Of a DNA stretch of 64,000 nt, positions 19,258 to 20,052 are shown piece by piece. Within the stretch, counting starts at the first letter, position 1. Each line of letters starts with the position of its first letter. The position numbers and the translations under genes are program-made. Below the pieces are notes generated by a model. That model was not told where the DNA came from. It did no database searches and saw nothing but the letters and a program-made list of their open reading frames with translations. Origin of the DNA: Escherichia phage ECO111 5-P; sequence record OR844765, one strand, 5' to 3'.

Positions 19258-19563
19258 ATGAGTAAGATTATTGAAATTAAAGTACCAGAGTTTAATGATG
19301 CCAAATCCGCTTCAGATGCAATTTATAAACTTCTGAATCAAGCTGAACGTATCGAAGAAGAAGCAACAAAGATCGCAGACAAATATGCCGTATCATTTTC
19401 TGTAGGTGATTATGGTAGTGGTCGTACTTATTATCCTAAGGGTGAAATCGTATCCCAGTGGATGAAAAATGAAATTGAAAATAACGGTGGCGATGTTAAG
19501 CGTGAAGGTAATGGTTACGTTATTACTGAAGGTGCTTGGGTTTCGTCTTCTGCGTTGTGCTAA
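19258..19563 (+). CDS. small protein, member 1 of a tandem family ending G-W-V-S-S-S-x-x-C
   Basis: ORF track 101 aa; C-terminus GAWVSSSALC. Confidence 0.5.
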   Translation: MSKIIEIKVPEFNDAKSASDAIYKLLNQAERIEEEATKIADKYAVSFSVGDYGSGRTYYPKGEIVSQWMKNEIENNGGDVKREGNGYVITEGAWVSSSALC

Positions 19564-19572
19564 GGAATCGTT

Positions 19573-19845
19573 ATGTCTAAAGAACAAACCGAACTGGTTG
19601 AAGCTGTAGCAAAAATCTATGCAGCTATTGAGGCTGCCAAAGAAATTGCTGATAAACAAAACACAACATTCAACTTGTACCCAGCTTATGGTATGGGTGG
19701 AACCTATCATTCACCTGGACATCTTAAAGCCGATCTTGAACGTTGTACAAAAAACGGCTATGCTGAATGGGCTGACGTTTACCAATACGACTACAACCTG
19801 AGCCTCGAAACTGGTGGTTGGGTCGCATCTTCTCACACTTGCTAA
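19573..19845 (+). CDS. small protein, member 2 of the same tandem family
   Basis: ORF track 90 aa; C-terminus GGWVASSHTC. Confidence 0.5.
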   Translation: MSKEQTELVEAVAKIYAAIEAAKEIADKQNTTFNLYPAYGMGGTYHSPGHLKADLERCTKNGYAEWADVYQYDYNLSLETGGWVASSHTC

Positions 19846-19854
19846 GGAAACAAT

Positions 19855-20052
19855 ATGTCTCGTGAATTAGATTGTGCTGTACGTACGGCAGTAGCTGCCC
19901 TGGAAAACCTGTTCCAAATTGCAACAGAAGAACGCGAAGAAGTTACATTATGGATTGAAGATAACGCAGGTCTGAATCTCCAGGACGCGATCTCATTATC
20001 CCGCAATAGTATCACTGTTCAAGGCTGGGTATCATCTAGTTATTCTTGCTAA
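19855..20052 (+). CDS. small protein, member 3 of the same tandem family
   Basis: ORF track 65 aa; C-terminus QGWVSSSYSC. Confidence 0.5.
   Translation: MSRELDCAVRTAVAALENLFQIATEEREEVTLWIEDNAGLNLQDAISLSRNSITVQGWVSSSYSC

Follow-up and report, generated by a model that had tools for sequence, protein, structure and literature searches.

Why should three neighbouring small proteins of one phage end in almost the same residues and stop at the same Cys? The question is raised by a stretch of 64,000 nucleotides (nt) from Escherichia phage ECO111 5-P (sequence record OR844765), called here the window, in which a sequence-only reading had singled out three adjacent open reading frames (ORFs) between positions 19258 and 20052. 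These had been described as ORFs of 101, 90 and 65 amino acids (aa) with Cys-final tails, and a check of the sequence found the description to be exact. We report that the proteins belong to a large, phage-restricted and so far undescribed Cys-tail family, and that the linkage of the tail genes to a single gene encoding a protein with the Pfam domains DUF7277 and DUF7275 is near-obligate and polar. The family, its motif, its termination at the Cys and the linkage are direct observations, and from them we infer a site of contact or modification in the tail, a chemistry for the partner protein and a biological role.

Three genes with a common tail

The window is a Mosigvirus (RB69-like T-even) segment, and its positions 18500-21500 match phages moha, AV116 and RB69 at 96-98% identity. 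The RB69 counterparts of the three genes all carry the annotation 'hypothetical'. The genes are:

19258-19563, + strand: ORF1, 101 aa, PHROG 899, ending ...EGAWVSSSALC, with a YGSGRTY loop at residues 52-58; RB69 counterpart RB69ORF139c+138c
19573-19845, + strand: ORF2, 90 aa, PHROG 899, ending ...TGGWVASSHTC, with a YGMGGTY loop; RB69 counterpart RB69ORF137c
19855-20052, + strand: ORF3, 65 aa, PHROG 4882, ending ...VQGWVSSSYSC, without the YG loop; RB69 counterpart RB69ORF136c

In a six-frame scan of the whole window the pattern W.[SA]SS..C followed by a stop codon occurred solely at the ends of ORF1-3, and no other + strand ORF of 60 aa or more has Cys as its last residue. Since the pattern is confined to these three ORFs, the tail is shared non-randomly and chance is excluded. 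A DNA repeat as the source of the common tail was ruled out by codon differences between the copies: Val is encoded by GTT, GTC or GTA, position -5 relative to the Cys by TCG, GCA or TCA, and Ser by TCT or AGT. The tail is therefore conserved at the protein level. The stop codons of ORF1 and ORF2 each overlap the Shine-Dalgarno sequence of the next gene (TGCTAAGGAA), and because of these overlaps between stop and ribosome-binding site ORF1-3 are read as one unit. In the RB69 reference (locus L001, AY303349, 4998-5304) the ORF1 orthologue has a 1-nt insertion (CAGTGGTATG vs CAGTGGATG) that splits it into ORF139c and ORF138c, and its tail reads WVSSPALC, with Pro in place of an otherwise invariant Ser; this orthologue is either a pseudogene or the product of sequencing errors.

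A phage family that stops at Cys

Word-based searches returned few relatives, yet among these were Aeromonas phage CC2 and jumbo-phage contigs of 360-370 kb that share the loop and the tail. A profile built from nine sequences was then used for an exhaustive HMMER search, which gave 584 clusters (made at 50% identity) at E<=1e-3, and the top 149 representatives were used for statistics of the tail. An exact Cys end was found in 138 of the 149, with Cys plus one residue in 7 more. All 138 Cys-enders have Ser at -4, 137 have Trp at -7 and 136 have Ser at -3. The residue at -5 is one of S, A and P, Gly is prevalent at -9 and -8, and Glu or Asp precedes. The signature of the family can be written [DE]-G-x-W-h-[S/A/P]-S-S-x-x-C, with the stop codon directly after it, and its core from the Trp onwards, W-h-[S/A/P]-S-S-x-x-C, is seen in ORF1-3. 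Selection acts on the position of the protein stop. The members are acidic proteins of ~65-145 aa (median length 86 aa, median isoelectric point 4.5), and 84 of the 138 contain no Cys besides the terminal one. The sequence-only reading had taken the tail as a conserved functional signal of divergent paralogs and had named its absence from homologues in other phages as part of what would refute this; hundreds of such homologues carry the motif, and the claim is strongly supported.

The loop Y-G-x-G-x-[TS]-[YF] is present in ORF1 and ORF2 and missing from ORF3 and from many linked paralogs elsewhere, so that it marks a subfamily only. Shorter or shifted variants of the tail also occur, namely W-x-S-S-x-C, W-x-x-S-S-C and W-x-x-S-W-C. 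The largest expansion found by profile search alone is in locus L104 (IMGVR_UViG_3300044693_000036, 6084-9089), where six Cys-tail paralogs, ending WMSSSDQC, WKNSSSYC, WTNSSTYC, WQPSAGTC, WEGSAC and WYSSHC, surround one DUF7275 gene. Small ORFs ending W-D-V-S-W-C and W-E-R-S-W-C were observed in L050 (5632-5817) and L070 (phage Mendera, 5764-5967); they adjoin DUF7275 genes that have no canonical tail partner, or stand beside such a partner, and from their sequences these ends may be a divergent type of tail. A search of the literature on the RB69 ORFs, the PHROG and DUF families, the motif, and C-terminal Cys or nucleotidyltransferases in anti-defence returned nothing relevant.

Linkage of the tail genes to a DUF7277-DUF7275 gene

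In two distant members of the family the tail gene is followed, at a distance of one or two genes, by a gene of ~300 aa matching Pfam DUF7275. The window has its equivalent downstream of the trio and on the same strand:

20383-21342, + strand: partner gene, 319 aa, PHROG 2141, with DUF7277 at residues 2-101 and DUF7275 at residues 120-305; RB69 counterpart RB69ORF134c

The linkage was examined from both sides. When loci were seeded with the partner (54 viral loci, partners at 32-94% identity), same-strand tail ORFs were found in 51 of the 54, one to five in each and almost always within 2 kb upstream. An independent seed, a degenerate DNA pattern encoding YGMGGTY, returned 73 loci, 43 of which hold a true family member. 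DUF7275 lies immediately downstream on the same strand in all 33 of these that could be assessed; the other 10 end less than ~1 kb past the tail gene and are unscorable, several of them coming from contigs in which the partner had already been found. Control loci with only a chance match to the pattern had DUF7275 in 0 of 30 cases. With a hidden Markov model combined with a looser tail pattern, which may let in a few false positives, 1-7 tail ORFs were found in 60 of 69 loci. Of these 162 tail ORFs, 151 precede the partner gene, and the median distance to it is 668 nt. Clustering of the neighbouring ORFs left the tail family and the partner as the sole families conserved across loci, and a third conserved gene of the module, looked for in the same clustering, was not found. 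A functional link between the tail genes and the partner gene is highly probable.

The linkage extends over Straboviridae, Phapecoctavirus, Otagovirus, jumbo phages, Myxococcus phage Mx1 and phages of Acinetobacter and Stenotrophomonas. Among deposited phage genomes the partner is found in 733 records, and tail genes stand beside it in Myxococcus phage Mx1, Acinetobacter phage Berthold, Escherichia phage ukendt, Pseudomonas phage phiPsa397 and Stenotrophomonas phage Mendera. The partner retains 42-48% identity when T-even and jumbo-phage copies are compared, far more than the small proteins with 26-30%. Among the genomes of 185,579 bacterial and archaeal species the partner occurs on five contigs of metagenome-assembled genomes (MAGs) only, four of which also have tail-like ORFs; in three of the four these were recognised with the looser pattern alone. 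Owing to this near-absence the module is regarded as phage rather than bacterial; an origin in bacteria or prophages was rejected, and the five contigs are consistent with phage contigs binned into MAGs.

The partner protein

The two Pfam matches of the partner are well above the cut-offs of 27 bits (DUF7277, E 3.7e-27, 95.3 bits; DUF7275, E 8.5e-77, 257.7 bits), and both domains were matched in all 37 partner homologues that were aligned. In the N-terminal part of this alignment G6, S7, D25 and D27 occur without exception, and 33 of the 37 sequences have E69. The invariant residues of the C-terminal part are K125, H128, K139, H194, D195, H198, E240, E241, E248, R249, K270, S274 and G278, with C272 in 32 of the 37.

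A hydrophobic strand leading to Gly-Ser, a DxD on a strand and then an acidic residue on a later strand form the signature of Pol-beta-type nucleotidyltransferases. The N-terminal domain of the partner fits this pattern, hG[GS]...[DE]h[DE]h...third carboxylate, at motif level only, and one deposited genome annotates the protein as a 'putative nucleotidyltransferase'. In the DUF7275 domain the set H...HD...H...EE...E, made up of H128, H194-D195, H198, E240, E241 and E248, would resemble the site of a metal-dependent HD-like hydrolase; a match to Pfam HD was not seen in the 37 homologues. From these motifs the partner looks like an enzyme, and its reaction would involve nucleotides or phosphate. 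Nucleotidyl-transfer chemistry is a tentative proposal and on the unlikely side.

The bodies of the small proteins

The view that the three proteins have unrelated bodies does not hold for ORF1 and ORF2 and is roughly right for ORF3. Both of the former match the profile of PHROG 899 (ORF1, E 1.2e-22, profile positions 134-221 of 221; ORF2, E 1.2e-18, positions 148-221 of 221) and they align with each other over 69 residues at 30% identity (E 2e-4). They have in common an N-terminal helix ending IAD, a strand and the YG(S/M)G(R/G)TY loop, and by sequence comparison they are full-length paralogs. ORF3 matches PHROG 4882 at full length (E 1.7e-36); both PHROGs are families of unknown function. 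In profile comparison the similarity of ORF3 to the larger family is confined to its final 16 residues (hhalign, probability 87%). A general helix-plus-hairpin build is also common to ORF3 and to ORF1 and ORF2. In its orthologues the first 21 residues and the tail are conserved, with W58, S60, S61 and C65 invariant and the tail residues between them variable. The N-termini of ORF1, ORF2 and ORF3 differ from one another.

The AlphaFold2 model of ORF1, with a predicted local distance difference test (pLDDT) score of 91.9, has a helix at residues 15-43, strands at 47-49, 56-59, 79-83, 86-91 and 93-96 and a turn at 97-100, the final residue falling to pLDDT 64. The model of ORF3 (pLDDT 83) has a helix at 3-26 and a hairpin at 46-55, with a tail devoid of secondary structure and a pLDDT of 53 for residues 61-65. 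From the low scores at the end of ORF3 and at the last residue of ORF1, the tail is predicted to be accessible or exposed. Scans of ORF1-3 against Pfam, NCBIfam and PADLOC gave nothing significant, and weak Pfam matches (Peptidase_S78_2 at E 0.005, E217_Gp32, MS_channel_3rd) were dismissed as below threshold. The three proteins do not match Pfam Acb2_Tad1_hairpin at E<=1, and no signal peptide or hydrophobic segment was found in them or in the proteins of the family.

Genomic setting and expression

The module lies between e.3 and e.2, amid other genes without an assigned function. The two best promoter-like sites of the region occupy exactly its two intergenic gaps, and a further small gene separates the trio from the partner:

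19170-19198, + strand: promoter-like site TTTACG-17-TATAAT, 10/12 consensus matches, in the gap before ORF1; similar to T-even early promoters
20058-20086, + strand: promoter-like site TTTACA-17-TATAGT with an upstream TG, 10/12 consensus matches, between ORF3 and the next gene
20103-20354, + strand: 83-aa ORF, PHROG 3723, between the trio and the partner; RB69 counterpart RB69ORF135c

From these sites the module appears to be expressed early. The 83-aa ORF is absent from the families conserved across loci and is a lineage-specific spacer rather than a conserved part of the module. An imperfect inverted repeat at 20066-20092 (ATAGGGCTA ... TAGTCCTAT) overlaps the promoter-like site after ORF3; it is not a typical terminator, because no T run follows it.

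Some differences from RB69 were observed at the edges of the module. About 250 bp of e.3 in RB69 (L001, 4659-4908) are absent at window positions 19158-19168, and as only ~100 bp separate the e.4 stop (19159) from ORF1, this phage, like phage moha, is without an intact e.3. Directly after the partner gene stands a 662-bp insertion (21336-21997) that holds a 218-aa ORF with a TTG start (21339-21995). This ORF has no Pfam match at E<=0.01, and Cys-rich and AP2-like stretches seen in it by eye suggest a mobile gene of the homing-endonuclease type. Further upstream, a 75-aa ORF at 17255-17482 (Pfam Phage_FRD3, E 1e-38) is the homologue of frd.3, placed as in RB69.

In other loci the annotated neighbours include genes for Sir2, macro-domain proteins, ADP-ribosyltransferase, Nampt, RNA ligase and polynucleotide kinase. 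By guilt by association the neighbourhood fits an accessory role in host takeover or counter-defence. In Escherichia phage ukendt (L065, 2929-4945) a homologue of Acb2_Tad1_hairpin, an anti-CBASS sponge (3138-3413, Pfam E 1e-16), is flanked by Cys-tail genes shortly before the DUF7275 gene, and downstream of the module are genes for a Dcm methyltransferase and Sir2. In three loci of distant phages (L003, 1-2478 and 10139-10249; L061, 938-1810; L068, 1265-2810) DUF7275 is found near genes for RNA ligase, polynucleotide kinase, metallophosphoesterase or tRNA. Sequence context of this kind could hint at an RNA-related role of the partner enzyme.

What the tail may be for

The reading that we favour, and to which we would give an even chance, is a two-gene phage module of tail genes in variable copy number and an enzyme-like partner that docks on or modifies their products during early host takeover or counter-defence. 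The small proteins, with 1-7 paralogs, would be the variable half of the module and the ~300-aa DUF7277-DUF7275 protein its constant half. The partner would dock on, or covalently modify, every paralog by way of the common tail, which is proposed as its handle because it is the sole element common to all paralogs and is exposed in ORF3. That the tail is such a site of contact or modification by the partner is a close call. Candidate acceptors would be the two invariant Ser, the terminal Cys or its carboxylate, and the divergent bodies may carry different specificities. The module would act early, host takeover or counter-defence being the most probable setting. Of the functions put forward in the sequence-only reading, a modification or recognition site is the one that gains support, and this indirectly, through the near-obligate linkage to an enzyme-like gene.

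A more specific form of the proposal makes the tail the substrate of a new protein-modifying enzyme that turns divergent small proteins into effectors or decoys against host defences, and this we consider rather unlikely. DUF7277-DUF7275 would nucleotidylylate or phosphorylate one invariant Ser; elimination of the group would then yield dehydroalanine, and attack by the terminal Cys would close a C-terminal thioether ring. Alternatively, the partner might activate the terminal Cys or its carboxylate.

Several results weigh against the favoured reading. Nucleotidyltransferase families of Pfam were unmatched at E<=1 by the 37 partner homologues, profile searches of the PDB with the partner at full length and with its N-terminal domain yielded chance matches only, and an hhalign comparison of that domain with a kanamycin nucleotidyltransferase sequence gave a probability of 0.5%; homology of the partner to nucleotidyltransferases is without statistical support. 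No recognisable tail gene was found near the most distant DUF7275 copies, at 26-35% identity, in phages of Streptomyces and Gordonia, Vibrio phage VH7D, DSS3_VP1 and Limnohabitans phages, nor near those of loci L056 and L060, likewise of distant lineages. As these lineages show none nearby, the partner can exist without a tail gene. The promoter-like sites are consensus matches only, and their number in the region is not above the shuffled expectation. The AWVS portion of the ORF1 tail is predicted to be a beta-strand of the domain, and on this model the conservation of the tail may be partly structural in origin.

A mainly structural tail is, for its part, an unlikely explanation. The G-x-W-h-S strand would close a small beta-sheet and SSxxC would cap it or mediate oligomerisation, for instance by the thiolates and carboxylates of several terminal Cys sharing a metal ion, and the partner would be linked in some other way, such as by a common host target or ligand. 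This agrees with the ORF1 model, in which residues 93-96 form a beta-strand and 97-100 a helical turn at a pLDDT of ~88, and with the long N-terminal helix of all members; in 84 of the 138 the terminal Cys is the only one, so that a metal could be bound only by an oligomer. If the strand were purely structural, however, C-terminal extensions would be tolerated, yet 138 of the 149 representatives stop exactly at the Cys, and proteins of the ORF3 type retain the tail, its last five residues predicted to be disordered, while most of the fold is lost. The near-obligate linkage is also left unexplained. It is quite improbable that the small proteins are sponges or carriers of a small molecule or nucleotide, with the YGxGxTY loop and the W/SS/C tail as the pocket and the partner making, altering or destroying the ligand, for example against a signalling defence. 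The conserved residues, Tyr, Gly, Thr, Trp and Ser, are those usual in ligand pockets and not in catalytic sites, the proteins are small, acidic, multi-copy and apparently early, the partner has nucleotide-enzyme-like motifs, and phage ukendt has an Acb2/Tad1-hairpin sponge gene in among its tail genes. Proteins of the ORF3 type and many of the other linked paralogs nevertheless lack the YG loop, neither Pfam nor fold comparison showed similarity to Acb2, Tad1 or Tad2, and this explanation leaves termination at the Cys unaccounted for.

Two other functions named in the sequence-only reading gained no support. As a C-terminal degron or protease site it would time the removal of early proteins by a host or phage protease, and its strictly C-terminal location and the predicted flexibility of the terminal residues would suit this. 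Degrons of the ssrA type have a hydrophobic end (…LAA) that is read by ClpX, SspB or Tsp. The polar SSxxC tail is unlike these and other known C-terminal degrons, it is conserved over phages of many unrelated hosts, the module contains no protease domain, and the linkage to DUF7275 is left unexplained; a degron is very improbable. A packaging or secretion tag, by which the proteins would enter the capsid or leave the cell, has the shared terminal motif alone to speak for it and is extremely improbable. Against it stand the apparently early transcription of the genes, the lack of a signal peptide or hydrophobic segment in the proteins and the presence of the module in phages with very different virion architectures, and again the linkage to the partner is not explained. 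The capsid targeting sequence of T4 is an N-terminal signal of ~10 residues removed by the prohead protease, whereas the conserved element here is C-terminal.

Parallels among known systems

For a writer or eraser acting on the tail, GlnD-PII is the nearest analogy in function. GlnD, which both uridylylates PII and removes the uridylyl group, joins nucleotidyltransferase-like and HD-like domains in one polypeptide and acts with a small partner, PII, that has an invariant hydroxyl-bearing site. There is, however, no detectable sequence homology; PII, a trimer of ferredoxin-like build, receives its modification on a Tyr in a loop and not at the C-terminus, and the module described here is a phage-only system with several divergent substrates per enzyme. 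MNT-HEPN (type VII toxin-antitoxin) systems are likewise two-gene cassettes, in which a minimal nucleotidyltransferase-like protein AMPylates or phosphorylates Tyr or Ser of a small co-encoded protein. In contrast to these, the C-terminal domain of the partner is without the HEPN Rx4-6H motif and no match was found by PADLOC or Pfam; the module belongs to lytic phages rather than bacterial genomes, has 1-7 small genes and shows no sign of toxicity.

Strict selection on the last residue and on the stop position, together with a co-encoded enzyme, is a feature shared with ThiS, MoaD and ubiquitin-like proteins (C-terminal GG) and with MccA-MccB (C-terminal Asn). ORF1-3 do not, however, have the combination of a beta-grasp fold and a C-terminal Gly-Gly that marks ubiquitin-like, ThiS or MoaD proteins. 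The Ser-Ser-x-x-Cys spacing would suit a ring formed by Ser dehydration and Cys addition as in lanthipeptide precursors, and AviCys of the epidermin type requires a terminal Cys; in the Cys-tail proteins, however, a domain with a confidently predicted fold stands in the place of a 'leader'. Among the genes nearby, Pfam scans brought up DUF7277 and DUF7275 only, and none of the LanB, LanM, LanKC or LanD types of enzyme. Chemistry of the lanthipeptide or AviCys type is not known from T-even phages. The Acb2, Tad1 and Tad2 sponges are also small phage accessory proteins from the same kind of region, but they are dissimilar in sequence and fold, and the known sponges have neither a conserved C-terminal Cys nor an obligate enzyme partner. 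At least one defining feature of GlnD-PII, MNT-HEPN, the carriers and the lanthipeptides is lacking in each case and no family assignment is made; neither component of the module could be placed, by the searches made here, in any characterised family or fold, and the module is undescribed.

Implications

In large lytic phages the early accessory genes are for the most part without an assigned function. The results presented here gather several hundred orphan genes into one family whose short signature, an invariant Trp and two Ser followed by a final Cys, is open to test. They also tie this family, over unrelated phage groups, to a single strongly conserved enzyme-like partner, and in doing so turn a set of hypothetical proteins into a defined two-component system. 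If the partner does dock on or modify the tail, this would represent a novel form of protein chemistry or of adaptor logic in phages, and if the tail is in addition the substrate of a dedicated enzyme, a new class of phage-encoded post-translational modification system. Should the module counter defence, it would constitute a new counter-defence family, present in many coliphages of the therapeutic type.

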